Of a DNA stretch of 64,000 nucleotides, positions 7,568 to 52,147 are shown piece by piece. The stretch comes from a phage. The notes below the pieces were generated by a model. The model was not told where the DNA came from. It saw nothing but the letters and a program-made list of their open reading frames with translations, and did not search any database. Numbering within the stretch: position 1 is the first letter of the stretch; the number at the start of each line of letters is the position of its first letter. Both the position numbers and the translations under genes were made by a program. Location: assembly GCA_036253495.1 (NCBI GenBank), contig GCA_036253495.1_4125.1. The stretch is one strand, 5' to 3'.

Positions 7568-10500
7568 TTAAAAACCAATATTAATATTACTTTTAGCTAG
7601 AGAGTTAACGATTTGTACGTTATCAACGGTAGCAGTACTAATGAATATTTGGTCAGGTCTAGAAGGTATCTCAAACAATGAACCAAACTTAGAATTAGGG
7701 TTTTGAGCTACAATTACAACAGTACTAATGTGTCTACCAAGTTGGGTATGAAGGTACGTACACAAATCAGTATAATAGAAACTTTCACCAAAATCCCAGT
7801 TCTCAACTGCAAAGTACTGGTTAGTTAATGAAACAATATTTTGACGAATTTCATCATCACTCATTGTACTATTAGGTAATTTCACTACTTTGAAATCAGC
7901 TTTATAATCCGGTGCTGCACTATTACCAAATAAAGGCAAATATTCAGCACTGTGCCATATCAAACTATCACTAATTACAGTTTTCTTCTCAACATCCTTG
8001 AAGATATCTTGTAATTCAACCGATGTTGGTGGTTTAGGCATATCACCTTTAGCACCATTCTTCAACCAAATATCAACTTCTGTCTTATATGAGTTTGTTA
8101 AAACATACATATCAATTAAGTTGGTTCTGCTTGGGTCGATTCGATTATCATCTGGTGCATAATGCTTCCAGTGGAAGTTAATAGACGTTCTAGCATTAGT
8201 TTTTATAGTAAGTTCAGATGTAATATCCTTATAACCATAATAATTAAGCTTTTTATTAGCGTCAACACTTGTACCCATGTTTTTAATACAACGATAGAAA
8301 GCAGTTTCTGGAGTAGCCGCACTTGGGTCTGTAACTTCAGTCATGTTCTGAATTAGAACACCCAAACGGTCATTGTTATTACCAACTGTTTGTTCGATGA
8401 AGTAATATTGCCCTTCGTATTGGAATGCAATAATAAAACCAGTACCTTTACTATATAGTTCACTTAGTGTAGTTGAGCGAATTTCATTATTACGAATGAA
8501 TTCTTGTCTCTTGTACGCATTAGTTTCCGCTAATGCCTGATCCATTGTGTAATTCCATGTTGAATCCATGATAGTGAATGATGAATTTGGTAATGTCAAT
8601 GAAGAAATAGTAAAATCTTCATTTTGTTGAAATACCAATATACCACCATATTTTCTAGAATCTTCACCTGTCCAATCAGGAACAATAGATTGGAATTGGT
8701 TAGGATTTAATGGAATACCATTACTATCCATACTTTCTGATGTAATTACAACTCTTGAACCATCCAAATAACCATTTTCTTGTTTTATTGTATCCAGAAT
8801 CTGGAAATCAATGTTATTGGTTAGACCCACGTTACTAGTACTGGTAGAGTTTGATGAAAGAATCTCAATTTTATCACTTTGCACTGAACCAGAACTAATA
8901 TCAGTGATTTTCTTAGAGCTTACAAAGTAAAAACGAACTTTTTCTCCACCAACAAATACATACTCAACACCATTGGAATCAAATTCCCATGTTTCAGCAG
9001 TGTATTGGATGTTAACCATCACCTGTACTAACGAACCATTGTATGTTATAGTATCACTAGTGGTTGTCATTTCCAAAGGAACCCATGTAGTGGATACAAT
9101 ATCATAAATTAGAATAAAGTTAGTTTTCTTATCTAACATTGCAGCAATATTTTGTACTTCAACTGTGTTGAAACGAGTTCTATATGGGCTAATGTACTCC
9201 TGAATCTGCATAGAGGAAGAAATAGGCGTACTTAGAACATAAAAACCGTTAGGTAACACGCTAACAATACTAGCCCATACGATATTATTTGAACTACTAC
9301 CGAATTTAATTAATGTACCAACTTTATAATCACCATAAATTGTACCAGTTGCCCCAATAATACGACCATATGTATTAGTTGCATAGCTTGAACTATATGA
9401 TGGAACCCAGTTTTGTTGTAATTCAACACGTACTGTATTCTGCGGATATGCTTGATACTTCTGAATAACAGCATTTTCACCAATTAATGGTTGTATATCA
9501 TCGATAACAATACTAGAATTAGATTTAGTACTTGGTAAATTAACAGATTTATTGTATTTGGTGACATTTTTGTACATTGCACCATCATCACTAAACACAT
9601 CAGTGTTTTGATACTTACCAGTTGGGTCATTTATGTCAATAAATCGTGATTGTCCACTGTAAATTCGGTTAATCGCTTTAGATTTCAGTACTGCATTACC
9701 TTGACTCAACGGAGCAATGTTATAATCTTCACCATTCACAAAACGGTTTTGTGTATAATACATTTGTGGTGCACGAGCTTTAATTTGTTCAAGGGTTTCT
9801 GCACTTTGTGCACGGTCTGATTCAAATTGTAAACTAAATTTAATATCTAATGTACTATTCTCATAGTTAGATTGTGATTTAGTTCTGTAAATGTACTTAA
9901 CACTTTTGTTTTGAATGTCAGCAGTTTTGATGTTGTATGTTTCGCCATTACTAACACGATACCAAACGCGATATGTACCACGTGGAACAACACCACTACG
10001 TGAATCAGGGAACTTAATACTGATTTGGTCACGATCACGAGTAGTTACCGCATAAATTGTTTTAAGTTGGCGTGTTACAGTGTTATATGCGATACTTTCC
10101 ATCGATGGAACCTTAGTCCATTTAGTACGAACTATACCATCTTCAGTGATTTCCTGTACCCATACGTCAGTTTCGTTAATATTGTCTACGTTTATATCCT
10201 GAATACGGTTTTCTTGTCTTACATCGTATTGGAAATCTTGATATTGTAATGTTCCTTGAATAAAATAAACAAAGAATCCAGTATTAGGTGAACTAAAACC
10301 ATTACCATCATTCTGATACACAATATATTTCTGTTCTTGTGGCTCAGGGTGTCTTTCATCAACACCAATAACGTTAATATCTGGGTTTACGACTTCAAAT
10401 GTCATCGATTCACCATTTACTGTTGCGGTGAATGGTAAATTAGGTGCAGACATAGGTAAAGTGTTCATTCTATACAAATGACGAGACACACCATTAATAT

Positions 10501-11540: not shown

Positions 11541-12029
11541 TTATACGGATTCAACAATCCTTGCCATTTTTTCAGCACGAGAAGTTGTTTGACGATACCA
11601 AGCGGAATCACGCATTTCTTTGCCAGCGGTTTTATAATCACCACGACCCAATGCTGCCATTGCTTTCTTAAAGTTCAATACACGAGATTTACCCATTTGG
11701 AATACCATCATCCAAAGTACACGTTGTACTTGAATAGGTGCAGTCATTCCGAATTGATCGTAAATCTCTTTTGCTTCTCTGTATGCATTTAGGGAATCTT
11801 TTTGAAGTAATGCTTCAGCTTCAGCTTCCGTTAGCCCTGCACTGAAATTTTCACCTTTTAGTACTAAGTGACCATATCCAATGGTATCTAGTCCTAGGCT
11901 ATCTTTATAAACTCTGAATTTACCATTCTTGAAATAACCTAATTTAGTTTGGAAAGCAATAGTACCTTCAAACTCTTTAATTTCTTTCAAATACTGTGCA
12001 TCATCAGGTTTAATTTCCCATTTACTCAT
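11541..12029 (-). CDS. T4-type lysozyme (GH24 endolysin-like)
   Basis: 162 aa. KDSLGLDTIGYGH, MVFQMG and SAWYRQTTSRAEKMARIV align with T4 lysozyme KDTEGYYTIGIGH, MVFQMG, SRWYNQTPNRAKRVITTF. Confidence 0.85.
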   Translation of the reverse strand: MSKWEIKPDDAQYLKEIKEFEGTIAFQTKLGYFKNGKFRVYKDSLGLDTIGYGHLVLKGENFSAGLTEAEAEALLQKDSLNAYREAKEIYDQFGMTAPIQVQRVLWMMVFQMGKSRVLNFKKAMAALGRGDYKTAGKEMRDSAWYRQTTSRAEKMARIVESV

Positions 12030-12044
12030 ATACTTCTCCTATAA

Positions 12045-12067
12045 TATTTATTGGATAAAATATTTAT
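12045..12067 (-). promoter_or_regulatory. Putative T4-type late promoter(s) for lysozyme gene
   Basis: Two ATAAATA cores on minus strand 15-40 nt upstream of the lysozyme ATG. Confidence 0.3.
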
Positions 12068-18006: not shown

Positions 18007-18058
18007 ATTAGCGATGGCACACGGATTGTGCCTATTGGTCATTACATGGAGAGTTACA

Positions 18059-18898
18059 ATGATAAACAAGCCGAAGCGTAAGAAGTATCTGAATAACGCA
18101 GACTTATTACGTGAAATACATAAAAGTAAGATATCATACTGCTGGCTTTTGGATAAAAGTTATGGTATGTATGATTATATTGTGTTTCATGAGTCTGAAA
18201 TCACAGAAGAATTACTTGAAAAGGCAAAAGCAGCACGAATCAAACGTTTGAATAATGAAATGCTTGATAGTGTTCGCGAAAAAGAGAATATGAGTGCTAA
18301 GAAAGCAAAGGAATATGCTGATGAGCACGGTCTATTCGTAAATGATGTACCACTGGATGAAGTGGTGATTAGAGTTATCACTGATGAGCACATTCCACCA
18401 GATACACGAGTGAATTTTGAACCATTTAAACATTATATCGTTGATAATGAAGGTATTCTGTATGAAGTTGTTCGTTCACATTGGAAAGGCGACTTGGAAG
18501 ATGGCGATTTCTGCTTAACACATGGTAAAATCACAAATGAACTCGGTAAAATGTTCATTAAACTAGCCGAAGAGATCTCTCACAAATCTAACTACAGAAA
18601 TTATACGTATTTGGATGAAATGATGGGTGATGCTAGAATACAATTAGTTAAAAATGCACTTCTCTTTAAAGAGAGTATCTTGTATAAGAAAGATAAACCC
18701 GCTGTCCAACTAAATCCTTTCTCATACTATACGTCATTCGTTAACAATAGCTTCCGTTCTATTTTGAACAGTGAGAAGAATGTACGTAACATTCGCGACG
18801 ACCTTCTTGAGATGCATGGTTTTACACCATCACATACAAGACAGATTGAAATCGAAATGAATATGATTGAAAGGAAAAATGACGATGGCACTATTTGA
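18059..18898 (+). CDS. Late-transcription sigma factor, gp55-like (putative)
   Basis: Start chosen at ATG 18059 (MINKPKRKKYLNNADLLREIH) after GGAGAG RBS. N-terminus resembles T4 gp55 (…YNYVNNKELLQAI…). Adjacent to gp47/gp46 as in T4. Confidence 0.45.
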   Translation: MINKPKRKKYLNNADLLREIHKSKISYCWLLDKSYGMYDYIVFHESEITEELLEKAKAARIKRLNNEMLDSVREKENMSAKKAKEYADEHGLFVNDVPLDEVVIRVITDEHIPPDTRVNFEPFKHYIVDNEGILYEVVRSHWKGDLEDGDFCLTHGKITNELGKMFIKLAEEISHKSNYRNYTYLDEMMGDARIQLVKNALLFKESILYKKDKPAVQLNPFSYYTSFVNNSFRSILNSEKNVRNIRDDLLEMHGFTPSHTRQIEIEMNMIERKNDDGTI

Positions 18899-29524: not shown

Positions 29525-30367
29525 ATGGCTAATTTAAAACTACTACAAGAAGCAATCGAAGCTTTTGCTAACGGCGAGCAAGATGTAGCTGATAAAAAAA
29601 TGCGTAAGTACTTTGTTGAACAAGCACAAGAAATTAACAAAGAACTAGAAGAAAGCATGGACGACGAAGAATGCTGCGATGAAGACGACAAAGAAGAGAA
29701 ACTAGAAGAAGACTTCGACGTTTCCCCAGATGCTGGTCTTAATAGTCAAATCGAATATTCTCTTGGTGAAGAAGACAAGAGTGCTGAAGATGATATCGAA
29801 TTCCAAGCTGGTGAAGAAGATTCTGAAGGTGAAGTTGGTGCAGAAGGTGAAGAAGTCCCTTCCGAAGACCAATGGGCTTCCATTCAAGATGCTTTCCGTG
29901 GCCTACAACAAATGTTTGATGAAATCTCCGGCGAAGGTGAAGTTGACCTAGACGCTGAAGAACCAGTAGGTGGCGAAGAAGAAGTTGATCTAGAAGTTGG
30001 TTCCGAAGACGGCGGTGATGATTTCGCTGATGTTCAATTCGGTGATGAAAAAGTTGGTGAGTCTTTCAAACTAAAAGCAGTTGCTGATGTTGATAAGAAA
30101 GAAAAAGCTGGTGCAAATACTAAATCCCCAGTTGCTTCCCAAGCTAAATCTCCAGTACAAGGCGTAGCTCCAGTAAAAATCGCTAAAAACTCAACTCCAG
30201 TAGTTGATGACAAATTTGATGGCGTAGATACTGAATCTCACACCGTACCAGAAGATATGAATAATGTTATGGATAGCGGCAAAGGCGTAATGAAAGACGT
30301 TAAGAAAGTAACCACTGGTTCTTCTAAGTCTCGTTCCCCACTACCAAAATCACAACCAAAATTCTAA
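29525..30367 (+). CDS. Highly acidic head core/scaffold-like protein (gp68/internal-protein-like)
   Basis: ATG 29525 after GGAGGA. Extremely D/E-rich N-terminal half, Lys/Ser/Pro-rich C-terminus. Located between portal and prohead protease. Confidence 0.5.
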   Translation: MANLKLLQEAIEAFANGEQDVADKKMRKYFVEQAQEINKELEESMDDEECCDEDDKEEKLEEDFDVSPDAGLNSQIEYSLGEEDKSAEDDIEFQAGEEDSEGEVGAEGEEVPSEDQWASIQDAFRGLQQMFDEISGEGEVDLDAEEPVGGEEEVDLEVGSEDGGDDFADVQFGDEKVGESFKLKAVADVDKKEKAGANTKSPVASQAKSPVQGVAPVKIAKNSTPVVDDKFDGVDTESHTVPEDMNNVMDSGKGVMKDVKKVTTGSSKSRSPLPKSQPKF

Positions 30368-32297: not shown

Positions 32298-33473
32298 ATG
32301 TCACAACTACTAAATGAATCCAAATGGGTAGCAGTTAAAGAGAAACTAGTTGAAGGTCTTCAAGGTACTCGTAAATCCGTAATGGAAACCGTTCTTGATA
32401 ACCATCGTAAAGTTATGCTACAAGAATCTGCAACCGCTGGTGCAACTTCTGCTGGTAACATCGCTACTCTAAACAAAGTGATTCTACCAATTATGCGTCG
32501 TGTAATGCCAACCGTTATCGCTAACGAAATCATCGGTGTTCAACCAATGACTGGCCCAGTTGGTCAAATCCACACTCTACGTGTTCAATACGCTGACAAC
32601 GCACCAGGTGTTGTAGCTGGCGAAGAAATGCTATCTCCATTCAAGATTGCTAAATCTTACACTGGTGAGCTAAACTCTGACAACAGCAACCCACAAGCTG
32701 CTCCTACTAGCCAACTAGAAGGTACTATGGGTCGTCGCGTTAACATCCGTATCCTACGTGAAACTGTTGAAGCGAAATCTCGTCGTCTATCTGCACGCTG
32801 GACTGTTGAATCTGCACAAGATGCACAATCTCAACATGGTATCGACGTTGAAGCTGAACTAATGGCTGCTATTGCACAAGAAGTTACCGTTGAAATCGAC
32901 CAAGAACTACTAAGCCGTCTACGTGCACTACCTGGTGCTGCTGCTGTAACTTATGACCAATCTAAAGTTACTGGCGTTGCAACCTTCGTAGGTGATGAGC
33001 ACGCTGCTCTAGCTACCCTAATCAACCGTCAAGCGAACGAAGTTGCTCGTCGTACCAAACGTGGTGCTGCGAACTGGGCTGTTGTTTCCCCAACCGCTCT
33101 AACTATTCTACAATCTGCAACTACTTCTAGCTTTGCACGTACTACTGAAGGTACTTTTGAAGCACCAACTAACGTTAAATTCGTTGGTACTCTAAACAGC
33201 ACCATGCGTATCTTCGTTGATACCTATGCTTCAGATGTTGAAGATATCCTAATCGGTTACAAAGGTAATGCAGAAACTGACGCTGGTGTTTTCTACTGCC
33301 CATACATCCCATTGATGGCATCTGGTACTGTTATGGACCCTAACACTGGAGAACTCGTTACAACCTTCTTGACACGCTATGGCTACGTCCAGCTAACAGA
33401 TTCTACTAGTTCACTAGGTAATGCAGCAGATTATTATTCTAAAATTGCTATCAAAAACGTTACTTTCATGTAA
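32298..33473 (+). CDS. 23: Major capsid protein (gp23-like, compact form of 391 aa)
   Basis: IANEIIGVQPMTGPVGQIHTLRVQY, VEAKSRRLSARWTVESAQDAQSQHGIDVEAEL and GYKGNAETDAGVFYCPYIPL align with T4 gp23 blocks. Lacks the T4 insertion domain. Confidence 0.9.
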   Translation: MSQLLNESKWVAVKEKLVEGLQGTRKSVMETVLDNHRKVMLQESATAGATSAGNIATLNKVILPIMRRVMPTVIANEIIGVQPMTGPVGQIHTLRVQYADNAPGVVAGEEMLSPFKIAKSYTGELNSDNSNPQAAPTSQLEGTMGRRVNIRILRETVEAKSRRLSARWTVESAQDAQSQHGIDVEAELMAAIAQEVTVEIDQELLSRLRALPGAAAVTYDQSKVTGVATFVGDEHAALATLINRQANEVARRTKRGAANWAVVSPTALTILQSATTSSFARTTEGTFEAPTNVKFVGTLNSTMRIFVDTYASDVEDILIGYKGNAETDAGVFYCPYIPLMASGTVMDPNTGELVTTFLTRYGYVQLTDSTSSLGNAADYYSKIAIKNVTFM

Positions 33474-33528
33474 TTTACAAAAAAGTAGAAAAAAGCAAAA
33501 ACACAGAATTAAATTCTTTTCAAAAAAA

Positions 33529-33560
33529 GGGACTCTTCGGAGTCCCTTTTCTTTTTTTTC
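33529..33560 (+). terminator. Strong intrinsic terminator after the capsid gene
   Basis: gggactc-UUCG-gagtccc (C(UUCG)G tetraloop) followed by TTTTCTTTTTTTT. Confidence 0.8.
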
Positions 33561-33569
33561 AAAAAAGTG

Positions 33570-33598
33570 TTGACATAGATCCTAGAAATAGATATAAT
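33570..33598 (+). promoter_or_regulatory. Consensus sigma70 promoter (TTGACA-N17-TATAAT)
   Basis: Perfect -35 TTGACA 33570-33575 and -10 TATAAT 33593-33598 with 17-nt spacer, directly upstream of the endonuclease-like gene. Confidence 0.7.
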
Positions 33599-33633
33599 AC
33601 GCGTATAGTAATTAATGTATAGGATATGAAGAA

Positions 33634-34773
33634 ATGAACAAAGAGCGGTTTGTTGAAAGTATGAATGAAAAGTATTCGTCATTGGGAATTAACGGTGACT
33701 TTGATTTCTCAAATTTAGTTTTTAAGACAAGTAAGATGACCGTAAAATGTAACCACTGTGGTAAAGAAAACACAAAAAGTGCATTACGCCATTTGGAATG
33801 TACCTGCAAATGTTATTCAAATCTTTCACAGAAAATATCAAAAGACGAATTTATTGATAGAATGAATGAAAAATTTGGTGTTGGTGTTTATAAATTTGAT
33901 AAACTTTTCTTTTTGAATGTTAGGGATGTTATTGAAGTATACTGTTCCAAACACGAAGGATACTTTAAAACAACCCCATACAATATGAGTCGTAGTGTGA
34001 ATGGGTGTAACATTTGCATTCCAAATAAAAAAATGAATCATGATGAATTTGTTTATAGATGTAACGCGTTATATCCGTATTTGGATTTTAACCGAGTTGA
34101 TGAAAATGGTGATAAAATAACAAAATTTGTAGGAACAACAAAGTATATAAAAGTATGGTGTAATAGACATAATGGAATTTGGGATGTTTATGCAAATACT
34201 TTGTTGAAAGGTAAAAATCATTGTGGTATATGTACCGGACGCAAACTTAGAACCAAAGAACAATTTGTAGAATTAGCATCTAAGATTCATGATAACAAAT
34301 ATGATTATTCAGAAGTTGAATATAAAAATAGTGAACATAAGGTGAAAATTATTTGTACAGAATGTAATGAATCATTTTCACAACAGCCAAAAGCTCACTT
34401 ATCTGGTAGAGGGTGTCCGGTATGTGGGAAGTATGGATATCAACAAAATAAGCCAGGTTATTTTTATATACAAAAATTAACTCCAAAAAATATAAATGAA
34501 GTAGCAATTTATAAAATTGGAATTACTGGAGATTTATTCAGAAGAATGTATGAACAATCTCTACATTCAGAATATTTTCATGAGTTTATCAGAACTGAAT
34601 TCTTTAGTGATGGTATAAAACCACTGGAGTTAGAAACACTTATAAAAAAAACTATTACATGTGGAATAATAACAGAAAATGAATTACAAGATGGATTTAG
34701 TGAAACGATTTCATCAAATGATGTTTATGAAGTTCACAAAATCGTAAATAAATTTATAGAGAGTGAAAAATGA
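33634..34773 (+). CDS. T5orf172/GIY-YIG-like nuclease-domain protein with four N-terminal zinc-ribbon-like repeats (putative homing endonuclease)
   Basis: C-terminus PGYFYIQKL…VAIYKIGITGDLFRRM matches the T5orf172 (GIY-YIG superfamily) signature. N-terminal ~45-aa modules each carry a C…H…GC(P)xC pattern (e.g. VKCNHCG…ECTCKC; IICTECN…GRGCPVCG). Confidence 0.55.
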   Translation: MNKERFVESMNEKYSSLGINGDFDFSNLVFKTSKMTVKCNHCGKENTKSALRHLECTCKCYSNLSQKISKDEFIDRMNEKFGVGVYKFDKLFFLNVRDVIEVYCSKHEGYFKTTPYNMSRSVNGCNICIPNKKMNHDEFVYRCNALYPYLDFNRVDENGDKITKFVGTTKYIKVWCNRHNGIWDVYANTLLKGKNHCGICTGRKLRTKEQFVELASKIHDNKYDYSEVEYKNSEHKVKIICTECNESFSQQPKAHLSGRGCPVCGKYGYQQNKPGYFYIQKLTPKNINEVAIYKIGITGDLFRRMYEQSLHSEYFHEFIRTEFFSDGIKPLELETLIKKTITCGIITENELQDGFSETISSNDVYEVHKIVNKFIESEK

Positions 34774-35267
34774 AATATAAAAATTTACAAAAAATGAAAT
34801 ATTATGCTGTTCTTCATGGCGAAGAAGGGGATGACTGGGCTTTTTATAATTATGATAAATTAGTTGAAGGATATGCTTATAATTTTGATGATGATTATTA
34901 TCAATTAAGAATTCAATATGATGAATATATAATATTTTCTGACAATTTCTGCACTAACTCAACTTCCATTGGTATTGGATCTATCAAAAATGAACTTACA
35001 AATCAAATAGTAAAGTGTAGAAATAAATCAAATGAAGTTATTGTGTATACGGAAGGTGCAAACTATTCATCTGGTATGAAACTGATCGGACGACCTAATT
35101 TCGATAGTACTGACGAACTATTTCAAATATCAACAGTATGTAATATTGATTGGGATAAAGTCAAAGAAGCATTTCGTATATTGGATGAATTGAATGAGAT
35201 AATCAATTTTAAATATTATCTAACTAAACCATCTGAATCTCTAGAATTAACTAATTTACCGAAATAA
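34770..35267 (+). CDS. Hypothetical protein
   Basis: 165-aa AT-rich ORF in the accessory island; no recognised motif. Confidence 0.5.
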   Translation: MKYKNLQKMKYYAVLHGEEGDDWAFYNYDKLVEGYAYNFDDDYYQLRIQYDEYIIFSDNFCTNSTSIGIGSIKNELTNQIVKCRNKSNEVIVYTEGANYSSGMKLIGRPNFDSTDELFQISTVCNIDWDKVKEAFRILDELNEIINFKYYLTKPSESLELTNLPK

Positions 35268-35287
35268 CAATAAGGAGGTTAACACGG

Positions 35288-35638
35288 ATGTTAACTGTAT
35301 ACATTTTTAAAAAAGAAGAGTACTTAAAGAGTCAGTACTCAAAAATTGAGATCAATGTTCCTTATGGAACGTTGGTGGGTTATGATGAGGCTACGGAGAC
35401 GTTGTATTACAATGATGATCGTCTGGATTACAGTACTGATCATTTTATAGAAGATATATTGAGTACTGATTCAGAAGACATGTTGTATGAAGAATATATT
35501 GACAAATACAAAGAACGCATGTCGAAGTTACATGCTGATGCTCCAGTACTGAACACTCCTAAAACCCCATCCGAGTTTGATCCTCAAAATCCATTTCAAC
35601 GCCTGATAGATGCGGGTGTAAACTTCAGAATTAGTTAA
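35288..35638 (+). CDS. Hypothetical protein
   Basis: 116-aa ORF with AAGGAGG RBS; no recognised motif. Confidence 0.55.
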   Translation: MLTVYIFKKEEYLKSQYSKIEINVPYGTLVGYDEATETLYYNDDRLDYSTDHFIEDILSTDSEDMLYEEYIDKYKERMSKLHADAPVLNTPKTPSEFDPQNPFQRLIDAGVNFRIS

Positions 35639-38185: not shown

Positions 38186-38488
38186 ATGGCTAAGTCTAAA
38201 AAAGAAGCAAAAGTAGAAATTCGTGACCTAAACGACGAACAACGTAAACGTCTAAGTGATGGTCTAAACAATGCAGTGGTACAGCTAACCTTTATTGATG
38301 ATACCAAAGCTTCCTATACTGATTTCATCAACTCTCTTTCTGATGAGCTAGGTATTGATGCATCCGATATCAAACAAGCTGCACAACGCATTTACAAAGG
38401 CGATTACTTTGATAAGCAAAACAAACTAGACAACATCGAAACTATCCTAAGCGTAACTAATAATCTACCACAAGCTGATGATTATTAA
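38186..38488 (+). CDS. dsDNA-binding protein DsbA-like (putative)
   Basis: ATG 38186 after GGAGA. …DFINSLSDELGIDASDIKQAAQRIYKGDYFDKQ… resembles T4 DsbA …DIRIRAKDELGVDGKMFNRLLALYHKDNRDVF…. Confidence 0.4.
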   Translation: MAKSKKEAKVEIRDLNDEQRKRLSDGLNNAVVQLTFIDDTKASYTDFINSLSDELGIDASDIKQAAQRIYKGDYFDKQNKLDNIETILSVTNNLPQADDY

Positions 38489-43141: not shown

Positions 43142-43441
43142 ATGAAACTAAAAATGATTAACGATTATGTTCTTGTTCGTCAGATTGAAGCACAAAACAA
43201 AAGTACTGGTGGTATTATCCTCGGTAATGTAGAGCCTCCATGTGTTGGTATGGTTATTTCTGTTGGTGAAGGTAAAGTACTACCAAATGGTCAAATCGCT
43301 GAACATAACATTCGTGAGGGTGATATGGTTGTTTTTGGTCGTTCTTCTCTGAACACCCCCCTGACTGAAGATCTTGGTGGTGGTGAAGATACATACTATG
43401 TAATGAAAATTGAAGAAATCTTTGGAAAGAAAAATGGCTAA
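43142..43441 (+). CDS. GroES-like co-chaperonin (functional analogue of T4 gp31)
   Basis: ATG 43142 after GGAGG. NDYVLVRQIEAQNKSTGGIIL…VGMVISVGEGKVLPNGQ…REGDMVVFGR…YYVMKIEEI follows the GroES/Hsp10 pattern. Confidence 0.7.
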   Translation: MKLKMINDYVLVRQIEAQNKSTGGIILGNVEPPCVGMVISVGEGKVLPNGQIAEHNIREGDMVVFGRSSLNTPLTEDLGGGEDTYYVMKIEEIFGKKNG

Positions 43442-44159
43442 GAAAAGGTTATTACCTTTCTGGATGGTCCCCGCTCATTGGGGACTTTCTGGTAAAGCGA
43501 AAGAGATTGCTAAAGCATACTATTACAATGACGATTATGAAGCAGATTTGAAAGTTGCAGAACTAACATATCTTACTGAATATGAAGTTGATGTTGCACA
43601 ATTGGACATTAAAAAGAAATATGGTGTTATTGATACACTAAAATATCTAATTGAACAGGCGGCTGTCGAATTAAAGTACTCTAAGATTACACGTGAAGAG
43701 TACGATTTAAAAGTACTTGACGCAAAGTTAAGTACTGATACTATTACTCAAAAAGAGTATGATATGGAAGTAATCGAGCTAATGCCTGAAGGTGATGATA
43801 AACGATTGAAAGCCATTGAGTATGCGTATAAGTATGATGAAATTACACAACAAGAGTATTCAAAGGAAATCTATACATTACGTAAAGAGCCTTGGATTGA
43901 TTTGGATGTAATTTTGAATCCTGATACAAACGAAGTAGAATTTGTATTTGATTACAATGAATACTTTTGGAAGAAATTAAAAGCCGAAGGTCACCCAGGA
44001 ACGGATGAAGAAGAGATTATTGATAACTTTGTTCGTGATTTGGGTCGCAAATTAGCTACTGACGATTATAGTGATAACGAAGATGCAAAGCTAGTGAGTG
44101 CGAACGCAGGGTTAGAGAATCTACCTGGTTTACCTGAAGGTTTCAAATCATACAAATAA
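43434..44159 (+). CDS. Hypothetical protein with internal tandem repeats
   Basis: Four ~20-aa repeats of the type (K/T/E)IT(R/Q)(E/K/Q)EYDxxV. Start overlaps the GroES stop. Confidence 0.55.
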   Translation: MAKKRLLPFWMVPAHWGLSGKAKEIAKAYYYNDDYEADLKVAELTYLTEYEVDVAQLDIKKKYGVIDTLKYLIEQAAVELKYSKITREEYDLKVLDAKLSTDTITQKEYDMEVIELMPEGDDKRLKAIEYAYKYDEITQQEYSKEIYTLRKEPWIDLDVILNPDTNEVEFVFDYNEYFWKKLKAEGHPGTDEEEIIDNFVRDLGRKLATDDYSDNEDAKLVSANAGLENLPGLPEGFKSYK

Positions 44160-44190
44160 AAAAAAGGAGAACAATATGTTCTCCTTTTCT
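44157..44190. terminator. Bidirectional intrinsic terminator between convergent genes
   Basis: A-run, ggagaac-aatat-gttctcc hairpin, T-run. Confidence 0.7.
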
Positions 44191-44202
44191 TGTATTAATT
44201 TA

Positions 44203-44895
44203 TTAAACCATTGCTGGGATAGATTTGAACATCTTGATACCGAAATCACCAGCAGCATCAGCAGCTTGGGATTTTAGGAAGACTTCAGTAACGCCATCTT
44301 TTGCAAGCATTGGGATACCAGTTAGATCGTCGATAAGTAGGCGACCTTCTTCGATTTCAGTACTTGGAACGCCTTGGAAAGATACTAGGTCTTTGTCAAA
44401 TACGTTCGCACGCTCAACTAGGAAAGTAACAACAGAAGCACTTGCAATATCAACAGTACCAACACTTAGTACACCATCAACTGCGTTAGTGAAACCTTCA
44501 ACTGCTAGTGGAGCGGAAGCATCATTACCACCGATTTCAGAAGTACTTAGAACAACTGCACGTTGTTGAACAACATCAACTAGACGTTTAACGTTAGTTT
44601 GAGCAGCGTAGGAAGCATTGTAATCAGCTTCAACAGTTGCAACTTCGAATGGAGTACCGTCGATACGGATGATACCTTTGTCATTTAGATATTCGGTAAT
44701 AACTTCAGGAATATCAGTGTTTAGAAAACGTTGTAGACCAGCAAAAGAACCAACTGCACCAGTAACACGCACGTTAACGTCACCTAGTTTACTAACAGCG
44801 ATAGAAGCTAGGGCGTTAGTACCACAGAAATAACCTAGAATTTTGTCAAAAGAATAACCGTTAATTCGTTCAAAAGAAGTATTAATATTAGACAT
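44203..44895 (-). CDS. Hypothetical Ala/Val-rich protein, paralogue A (probable abundant virion protein)
   Basis: 230 aa, strong AAGGAG RBS, locally higher GC. Shares blocks with the adjacent gene (QQRAVVLSTS / FLVERANVFDKDLVSFQG). Confidence 0.6.
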   Translation of the reverse strand: MSNINTSFERINGYSFDKILGYFCGTNALASIAVSKLGDVNVRVTGAVGSFAGLQRFLNTDIPEVITEYLNDKGIIRIDGTPFEVATVEADYNASYAAQTNVKRLVDVVQQRAVVLSTSEIGGNDASAPLAVEGFTNAVDGVLSVGTVDIASASVVTFLVERANVFDKDLVSFQGVPSTEIEEGRLLIDDLTGIPMLAKDGVTEVFLKSQAADAAGDFGIKMFKSIPAMV

Positions 44896-44910
44896 GTTAA
44901 TCTCCTTATA

Positions 44911-45510
44911 TTATAGTTGAACTGGTAGAGCAGCACGAACTTTAATAGCTACAGCTTTAGCAGCTTCAGCATCACCAACACCATCAGTAGTAACATCTAC
45001 GAAAGATTTAGTACGGAAGAATTTAGCTTGAGCGATTACTTTAGCTAGTTCAACAGTTGGATCAACTGGAACAGAGTAAGCAGCACCTGGACGAACATCT
45101 TGTTTAGCGAAAACGTCTTGACGTTCGCAGATGAAGGTTAGTGCAACAGAACCAGCACCGCCAGCAACATCAGCACCAGAAGTACCGAAAGCAACTACGT
45201 TACCGCCAACAGTTTTGAAATCCGCTGGGATTACTACGTCAGTGTCAAGAGCTAGTACAGAAGTAGTAACTAGAACAGCACGTTGTTGTAGTAGTTGGGT
45301 TAGCATGAATTGGTTGTATTGTGCGTTAGTGATCGCAGTTTGTAGTGCTTCATCTTGTAGTTCAGAACCATCGGAAGTTACTTTGGTAGTACCAACTTCA
45401 ACATCTGCTGGTAGATCAACAACGATAGTTACAAAACCATTATCACCACCCCAGTACTCACGGGAGTTAGCAGACATACCATAGTTACGGTTAAAAGAAT
45501 TAAGACTCAT
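44911..45510 (-). CDS. Hypothetical Ala/Val-rich protein, paralogue B
   Basis: 199 aa, AAGGAG RBS. QQRAVLVTTS and FICERQDVFAKQDVRPG match paralogue A. Confidence 0.6.
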   Translation of the reverse strand: MSLNSFNRNYGMSANSREYWGGDNGFVTIVVDLPADVEVGTTKVTSDGSELQDEALQTAITNAQYNQFMLTQLLQQRAVLVTTSVLALDTDVVIPADFKTVGGNVVAFGTSGADVAGGAGSVALTFICERQDVFAKQDVRPGAAYSVPVDPTVELAKVIAQAKFFRTKSFVDVTTDGVGDAEAAKAVAIKVRAALPVQL

Positions 45511-45633
45511 AAAAATCTCCTTGTCAATTTTGTGCAGGACTCTCCTGCTTAAGATTATTTATCAATTATTTAAAAGCACCCACATAATAAGTGATTTTCT
45601 TTCCTTGATTATATGCTATTATTTATCAATTAT

Positions 45634-45661
45634 GGGAAGAGACATTTATATGTGCTATAAT
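45634..45661 (+). promoter_or_regulatory. sigma70-like promoter (GGGAAG-N16-TGcTATAAT) upstream of rnh
   Basis: Extended -10 TGcTATAAT 45653-45661. -35 is a weaker match (GGGAAG). Confidence 0.4.

Positions 45662-47245: not shown

Positions 47246-52147
<4,902 letters not shown>

Follow-up and report, generated by a model that had tools for sequence, protein, structure and literature searches.

Two paralogous late genes of a RaK2-like jumbo phage encode predicted abundant virion proteins that may form a capsid accessory layer

The 64,000-nucleotide (nt) stretch of phage DNA analysed here (contig GCA_036253495.1_4125.1 of GenBank assembly GCA_036253495.1, hereafter the window) carries on its minus strand two adjacent genes, encoding proteins of 230 and 199 amino acids (aa), that are the subject of this report. 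A sequence-only reading of the window, made by a model, had singled out this pair as tandem paralogues preceded by a duplicated late-promoter-like motif and proposed that they encode abundant virion components. The two open reading frames (ORFs) lie exactly where that reading had placed them (Table 1), and the strong AAGGAG ribosome-binding sites it described are present 6 nt before each ATG. Because only 15 nt separate the genes, their layout implies that they would be co-transcribed. Downstream, a terminator-like hairpin separates the pair from a convergent gene (43434-44159).

Table 1. Coordinates of the gene pair and its flanking elements in the window
Feature	Position	Strand	Basis and remarks
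Promoter-proximal gene, 199 aa (A4_26)	44911-45510	-	ORF; phrog_9326, E 4e-82; 100% identical to the A4 protein
Distal gene, 230 aa (A4_25)	44203-44895	-	ORF; phrog_9326, E 1e-77
Shine-Dalgarno AAGGAG of the 199-aa gene	45517-45522	-	Sequence; kept in all aligned phages
Shine-Dalgarno AAGGAG of the 230-aa gene	44902-44907	-	Within the 15-nt intercistronic spacer
Proximal T4-type late-promoter-like element ATAATTGATAAATAA	45555-45569	-	Exact match; ATAAATA core 45556-45562, 52 nt upstream of ATG
Distal copy of the 15-mer ATAATTGATAAATAA	45619-45633	-	Exact match; 64 bp upstream of the proximal copy
Leader hairpin GCAGG-AGAGT-CCTGC	45534-45548	-	RNA fold; starts ~7 nt after the proximal ATAAATA
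Bidirectional intrinsic-terminator-like hairpin and T-run	44159-44191	both	Terminator scan

The window is about 99.5% identical to Escherichia phage A4 (ON286972.1), an Asteriusvirus of 355 kb and a RaK2-like jumbo myovirus. A 2-kb stretch at the gene pair is 99.8% identical to A4, and longer stretches of the window are 99.3-99.5% identical with a few indels. Since about 550 bp at 33474-35288 are extra in the window and do not align with the A4 record, the source is, judged from these alignments, a very close relative of A4 and not A4 itself. The sequence-only reading could not assign the two proteins to a known T4 protein. Indeed none exists, but T4 was the wrong yardstick: a T4 counterpart of either protein was rejected because the phage is RaK2-like, and not T4-like, at this locus.

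The sequence blocks that the two proteins had been noted to share reflect full-length paralogy. BLASTP aligns them with 34% identity over 86 aa (E 4e-5), profile-profile comparison of the two families with hhalign covers their full length (99.9% probability, E 3.5e-36), and both match the same family, phrog_9326 ('virion structural protein'), over its whole 195-position profile, the 230-aa copy having a helical insertion of about 30 aa relative to its paralogue. Orthologues were found in 74 phage records. They include RaK2 gp106w, GAP32_264, CBB_270, and phAPEC6 gp211 for the 230-aa protein, and RaK2 gp107w, GAP32_265, CBB_271, and phAPEC6 gp210 for the 199-aa protein; 121Q 618 is also among the orthologues of the pair. 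Beyond these relatives the family appears isolated, as a profile search of 1.84 billion representatives returned only 42 clusters, of about 70-300 aa bar one spurious, with no link to a wider family, and neither protein has a meaningful match in Pfam or NCBIfam. The label 'hemagglutinin repeat-containing protein' carried by the phAPEC6 protein was rejected, being without support from any profile search.

The position of the tandem pair, between a block of GroES and structural genes and a divergent RNase H gene, is conserved in A4, RaK2, CBB, GAP32, phAPEC6, vB_Ec-M-J, EJP2, Hallingskeid, XbC2, and fHe-Yen9-04. The RaK2-type loci have the same pair in the same order, with 57-80% protein identity, and share with the window the neighbouring genes (GroES, the convergent structural gene, and the divergent RNase H gene) as well as the promoter, the leader hairpin, and the ribosome-binding site. 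Copy number of the family does vary: most phages have two copies, a metagenomic relative has one (8001-8552 of its stretch, in the same RNase H/GroES surroundings), and Vibrio phage 2.275.O has three in tandem (396-2476 of its stretch). This variation fits quasi-equivalent subunits of one assembly.

Members of this family have been detected repeatedly in purified particles. In the 2013 study of RaK2, gp106w and gp107w, termed 'two distantly related proteins', were identified by tandem mass spectrometry as abundant gel bands of the virion; they run at their predicted full mass and appear uncleaved (PMC3622015). Mass spectrometry (MS) of CBB virions covered 91% of CBB_270, the highest value in the data set, and 56% of CBB_271 (PMC5259590), while in phAPEC6 virions the coverage was about 70% for each of gp211 and gp210, next to 75% for the major capsid protein and 68% for the sheath (PMC7247149). 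The GAP32 orthologues 264 and 265 are likewise annotated as virion structural proteins. The proposal that the two genes encode abundant virion components thus agrees with MS of their orthologues in RaK2, CBB, and phAPEC6, and, by sequence, the pair can be placed in a known family of related, very abundant virion proteins of RaK2-like phages. Among the proteins of RaK2-like jumbo phages that have no assigned site in the particle, they are probably the most abundant.

The composition of the genes is in keeping with the earlier description of them as richer in GC and in Ala, Val, and Thr than their neighbours. Their GC contents are 40.4% and 42.5%, versus a mean of 35.5% (standard deviation 3.4) for 55 genes of the window, and their combined Ala, Val, Thr, and Gly contents, 37.8% and 43.7%, are the top two of these 55 (major capsid protein, 37.3%). 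They are the only window genes whose products have a positive grand average of hydropathy, and both products are acidic, with isoelectric points (pI) of 4.4 and 4.5.

Codon usage sets the pair apart in the same direction as the capsid gene. When 68 genes were scored by log-likelihood relative to the usage of the major capsid protein (itself 0.272), the 199-aa gene ranked second (0.254) and the 230-aa gene third (0.169), ahead of the sheath (-0.024) and the tube paralogue A4_549 (-0.109). Of the Leu codons, 86-88% are CTA in the pair and 83% in the capsid gene, compared with 10-30% in most other genes; the corresponding shares of ATC among Ile codons are 62-83%, 71%, and 10-30%. CTA is rare in E. 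coli, and the preference for it hints at a phage tRNA-Leu(UAG); no tRNA gene is present within the window. A strong CTA/ATC preference is found only in the capsid gene (32298-33473), the pair, and a virion gene at 29525-30367, where CTA accounts for 75% of Leu codons. As to the pair, the MS coverage of its orthologues, which is no absolute quantification, resembles that of the capsid protein; together, codon bias and proteomics suggest a copy number nearer to that of the capsid protein (1620) than to that of a tail component (about 150).

The sequence-only reading had also reported a 15-bp motif occurring twice upstream of the pair. Two exact copies do exist, but the positions it gave (45557-45571 and 45615-45629) are off by 2-4 nt. 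Upstream regions were aligned for 11 phages. Five genera of the International Committee on Taxonomy of Viruses are represented among them, along with an unclassified Erwinia phage and a Vibrio phage with a protein of 37% identity. The two copies are identical over 15 nt in A4 and the window, while only a core of 8-11 nt is common to them in the other genera. Because all 11 phages share the proximal core TTGATAAATAA and the TTAAG that follows it without change and 10 of them retain the distal ATAAATA, with the remaining spacer diverged, the alignment indicates that the repeat is not a product of chance.

That the motif resembles a late promoter, as had been proposed, is in line with its distribution, with the gene content of the window, and with published work. 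Of the 21 occurrences of ATAAATA in the window, 17 are sense-oriented and lie 10-120 nt upstream of a gene start, a placement for which 4.8% of strand positions qualify (binomial P ~2e-19), and the genes concerned encode mostly baseplate, portal-region, protease, scaffold, capsid, and fibre proteins. ORF 18014-18898 (A4_588) encodes a gp55-like sigma factor, annotated 'sigma factor for late transcription', whose CBB homologue matches PHA02547 (PMC5259590). In 2017 ATAAATA had already been described in CBB and GAP32, where it precedes structural genes, and been likened to the T4 late promoter; no homologues of gp33 or gp45 were found by the authors of the CBB study (PMC5259590). With the T4 late promoter TATAAATA, read by gp55, the elements of the pair have in common that they are AT-rich -10-type elements with no -35 element, located upstream of structural genes; they differ in reading GATAAATA, twice, with G as the first base, and thus match the consensus at 7 of 8 positions. 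By sequence and by the presence of the sigma gene they qualify as T4-type late promoters, and their use as promoters is predicted. A sigma-70 promoter scan of the locus gave sites no more numerous than in shuffled sequences.

Elsewhere in the window, ATAAATA marks nearly every late or structural unit, as at 12051 and 12067 (-), 24566 (-), and 25166, 30370, 31031, 32245, 35980, and 49560 (+). Separated by 16 nt, the two sites at 12051 and 12067 make a second tandem pair, which precedes the baseplate hub/lysozyme gene 11541-12029. On the opposite strand from the late-promoter copies of the pair, and with the distal copy just upstream of it, an extended -10 element, TGCTATAAT, lies at 45653-45661 (+), 79 nt upstream of the divergent RNase H gene; five phages of three genera share its ATTATA-C core unchanged.

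Directly after the proximal promoter element, the leader can form a small hairpin. Its 5-bp stem pairs in 11 of the 11 aligned sequences, with compensatory changes in three of the five pairs, as illustrated by RaK2 (GTAAG/CTTAC) and the Vibrio phage (GCCAG/CTGGC). None of 500 shuffles, nor any slid register, reaches the observed pairing. In a more distant metagenomic relative, this position is occupied by another hairpin, GGAAGC/GCTTCC. In T4, late transcription begins a few bases past TATAAATA; should this spacing apply here, we infer that the hairpin would be located at or close to the 5' end of the transcript. A hairpin at the 5' end of an mRNA is a classic stabilising feature.

Predicted structures, built with AlphaFold2 from alignments of 33-34 sequences, are confident, with mean predicted local distance difference test scores of 80.7 (199 aa) and 81.0 (230 aa) and predicted template modelling scores of about 0.77. 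In both models the first 20 residues are disordered and are followed by an alpha/beta domain in which a long helix packs on a sheet, giving a compact globular protein with a ferredoxin-like core. The residues R8, G11, G22, and N24, which belong to a small set that is invariant across both paralogue families, are carried by the disordered N-terminal arm, and because invariant residues sit in a disordered segment the models suggest that this arm may serve for docking. A Foldseek search of the PDB with the 230-aa model returned nothing significant, and a Foldseek search of BFVD gave only family members and weak unnamed matches (among them a 135-aa protein of Atu_ph07, E 9e-4); searches of the PDB by sequence, with single sequences or profiles, gave only chance-level matches.

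Where in the particle these proteins reside has been a matter of conjecture since the study of RaK2, which proposed that one of the two might be the tail tube on account of their size (21-25 kDa), abundance, and beta-strand propensity (PMC3622015). The pair does resemble myovirus tail tube proteins of the T4 gp19 type (PHROGs 4542, 13438, and 45) in size and abundance, but it differs from them in fold, hidden Markov model (HMM) matches, and gene position. Neither model has the tube-type fold, a beta-sandwich with a flanking helix as in gp19, Hcp, and gpV, and HMM searches of Pfam and PHROG detected no tube family. Moreover, tail-tube PHROGs (4542 and 13438, E 1e-79 to 1e-221) are matched by three genes right after the sheath gene, of which two have a weak additional match to phrog_45 (E ~1e-3), and, as judged from matched molecular masses, orthologues of these tube-family genes are apparently among the phAPEC6 virion proteins, at low coverage (PMC7247149). 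The pair is not beside the sheath gene, A4_547; in the A4 record that gene and the tube-family genes A4_549-551 after it lie about 80 kb away. The codon bias of the pair is also stronger than in the sheath gene or the tube paralogues. With the tube role already filled, it is highly improbable that one or both proteins form the tail tube, and this assignment was rejected on the fold and on the tube-family genes next to the sheath gene. Of the tail tube, sheath, and decoration families for which a homology check had been suggested, neither tube nor decoration was matched by profile or fold, and the tail tube is largely excluded. The three tube-family paralogues themselves (227, 258, and 364 aa; 145481-148133 of the A4 record) are annotated in A4 just as 'structural protein'.

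Cryo-electron microscopy (cryo-EM) of phAPEC6 and 121Q revealed three unassigned features: an inner body, a two-armed protein at every hexon centre, and an elongated outer protein that forms a hexagonal network and equals the capsid protein in copy number (PMC7247149 for phAPEC6). The inner body, a rod of protein that measures about 91 x 18 nm and was detected by bubblegram imaging in 121Q and phAPEC6 heads (PMC7247149 for phAPEC6), could be what the pair builds, as internal head proteins that would be packaged together with the DNA and might enter the host on ejection; we regard this as unlikely. Hundreds of copies of a small protein would be needed for such a body, which fits the abundance and codon bias of the pair. 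The inner-body proteins of phiKZ, which are likewise abundant, form tandem paralogous families; however, they are processed by the prohead protease, whereas the RaK2 orthologues of the pair are apparently uncleaved. The pair also has no detectable homology to phiKZ-type inner-body proteins and is encoded outside the prohead module, and its acidic, hydrophobic products are without DNA-binding character. The virion protein encoded at 29525-30367 (+) is better placed for this role: it is a 280-aa protein (phrog_15696, pI 4.07), strongly codon-adapted and encoded between the portal and prohead protease genes, and may plausibly be a prohead-core or inner-body component. Another repeated external part, such as the base or anchor of a hexamer-centre fibre or the 'hairy' appendages of head or sheath, seems an improbable location for the pair. 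The capsid and tail fibres of phAPEC6 are without known genes, and a two-protein unit could match the dimeric shape of the two-armed protein at its hexon centres (PMC7247149); the presence of one, two, or three family copies in relatives also suggests interchangeable subunits. Yet about 270 hexon centres would require fewer copies than codon bias and gel abundance suggest, the models are compact and globular and not fibrous, and the pair is kept in GAP32, whose possession of CBB-type tail whiskers is treated as uncertain in the CBB study (PMC5259590).

The particle location of the pair is most likely the head and not the tail tube. Capsid-like abundance, absence of processing, genes located outside the portal-protease-scaffold-capsid module, a conserved flexible arm, and acidic character together argue for an outer capsid accessory role, and a decoration or cement hetero-oligomer is the reading that we put forward, tentatively and at somewhat less than an even chance. 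The pair is similar to decoration and cement proteins such as lambda gpD and T4 Soc in being small, very abundant, not processed, and encoded apart from the head-assembly module, as well as in its conserved flexible N-terminal arm; the N-terminus of gpD becomes ordered only upon capsid binding. It differs from them in consisting of two paralogues in place of one protein, in lacking likeness of fold or sequence to any solved member, and in that its binding to the capsid is only proposed. In the mechanism that we envisage, two ATAAATA late promoters 64 bp apart, presumably read by the gp55-like sigma factor encoded in the window, would drive a late bicistronic operon whose mRNA is probably stabilised by the conserved leader hairpin. 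Combined with the AAGGAG sites and the capsid-like codon preference, this should supply the two paralogues, small acidic proteins with much Ala, Val, and Thr, in very large and roughly equal amounts. They would rank among the most abundant components of RaK2-like virions. These would assemble as a hetero-oligomeric accessory layer on the T=28 capsid, docking onto the major capsid protein through their conserved disordered arms, and would account for the cryo-EM density seen on phAPEC6 and 121Q in copies equal to those of the capsid protein. A more specific version, in which the pair is a heterodimeric cement protein of novel fold forming the outer lattice of the T=28 RaK2-like capsid, with as many copies as the capsid protein, is distinctly more doubtful.

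Several considerations weigh against the mechanism that we envisage. The virion data concern orthologues 57-80% identical to the proteins of this phage, and the start sites and promoter use of the pair are read from the sequence. The location itself draws on abundance, codon bias, and an unassigned density at 10 Å, and none of the known decoration folds (beta-tulip, Soc, immunoglobulin-like, and oligonucleotide/oligosaccharide-binding) was matched. According to the authors of the phAPEC6 study, the decoration density could not be assigned from MS and might be a domain of the capsid protein; other small virion proteins of high coverage, gp347, gp306c, and gp253, compete for it (PMC7247149), and the inner body of 121Q and phAPEC6 also calls for an abundant protein (PMC7247149 for phAPEC6). 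A literature search for a high-resolution structure of a RaK2-like capsid found none.

Two further features of the window were recorded in passing. A 100-aa protein encoded at 38186-38488 (+), just upstream of the DNA polymerase gene, shows capsid-like codon bias (CTA, 89% of Leu codons) and a weak match to the transcriptional-regulator family phrog_639 (E 5e-8). A one-base shift located precisely at the Walker A motif splits the large terminase frame into ORFs 47925-48263 and 48226-49563, with a junction near 48177-48196; the window reads CAGATG[C]GGAAAAACAACAG, and the intact large terminase of CBB reads ...ARQMGKTTV.... The GenBank record of A4 has the same shift, the gene being annotated there as separate coding sequences, and its explanation could be a sequencing error common to both, pseudogene formation, or programmed frameshifting.

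The paralogy of the two genes, the abundance of their products in virions, and the ATAAATA motif had all been published for close relatives, so that what the sequence-only reading found is real and correctly interpreted, but already known. The discovery value is accordingly small, and the structural question remains the main interest. New here are the setting aside of the tube hypothesis, the placing of the pair in the expression class of the capsid protein, and the conservation, with covariation, of a promoter-hairpin leader. Promoter, hairpin, ribosome-binding site, and codon usage make up a compact natural high-expression late-gene cassette in this group of phages. Dropping the tail-tube label and assuming a capsid-level copy number narrow what a high-resolution map should seek. 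If the two proteins did form the outer lattice, their paralogy would break the local two-fold symmetry and could give rise to the staggered 'zig-zag' ridges of 121Q, and the lineages with one or three family copies would be natural variants of that lattice.

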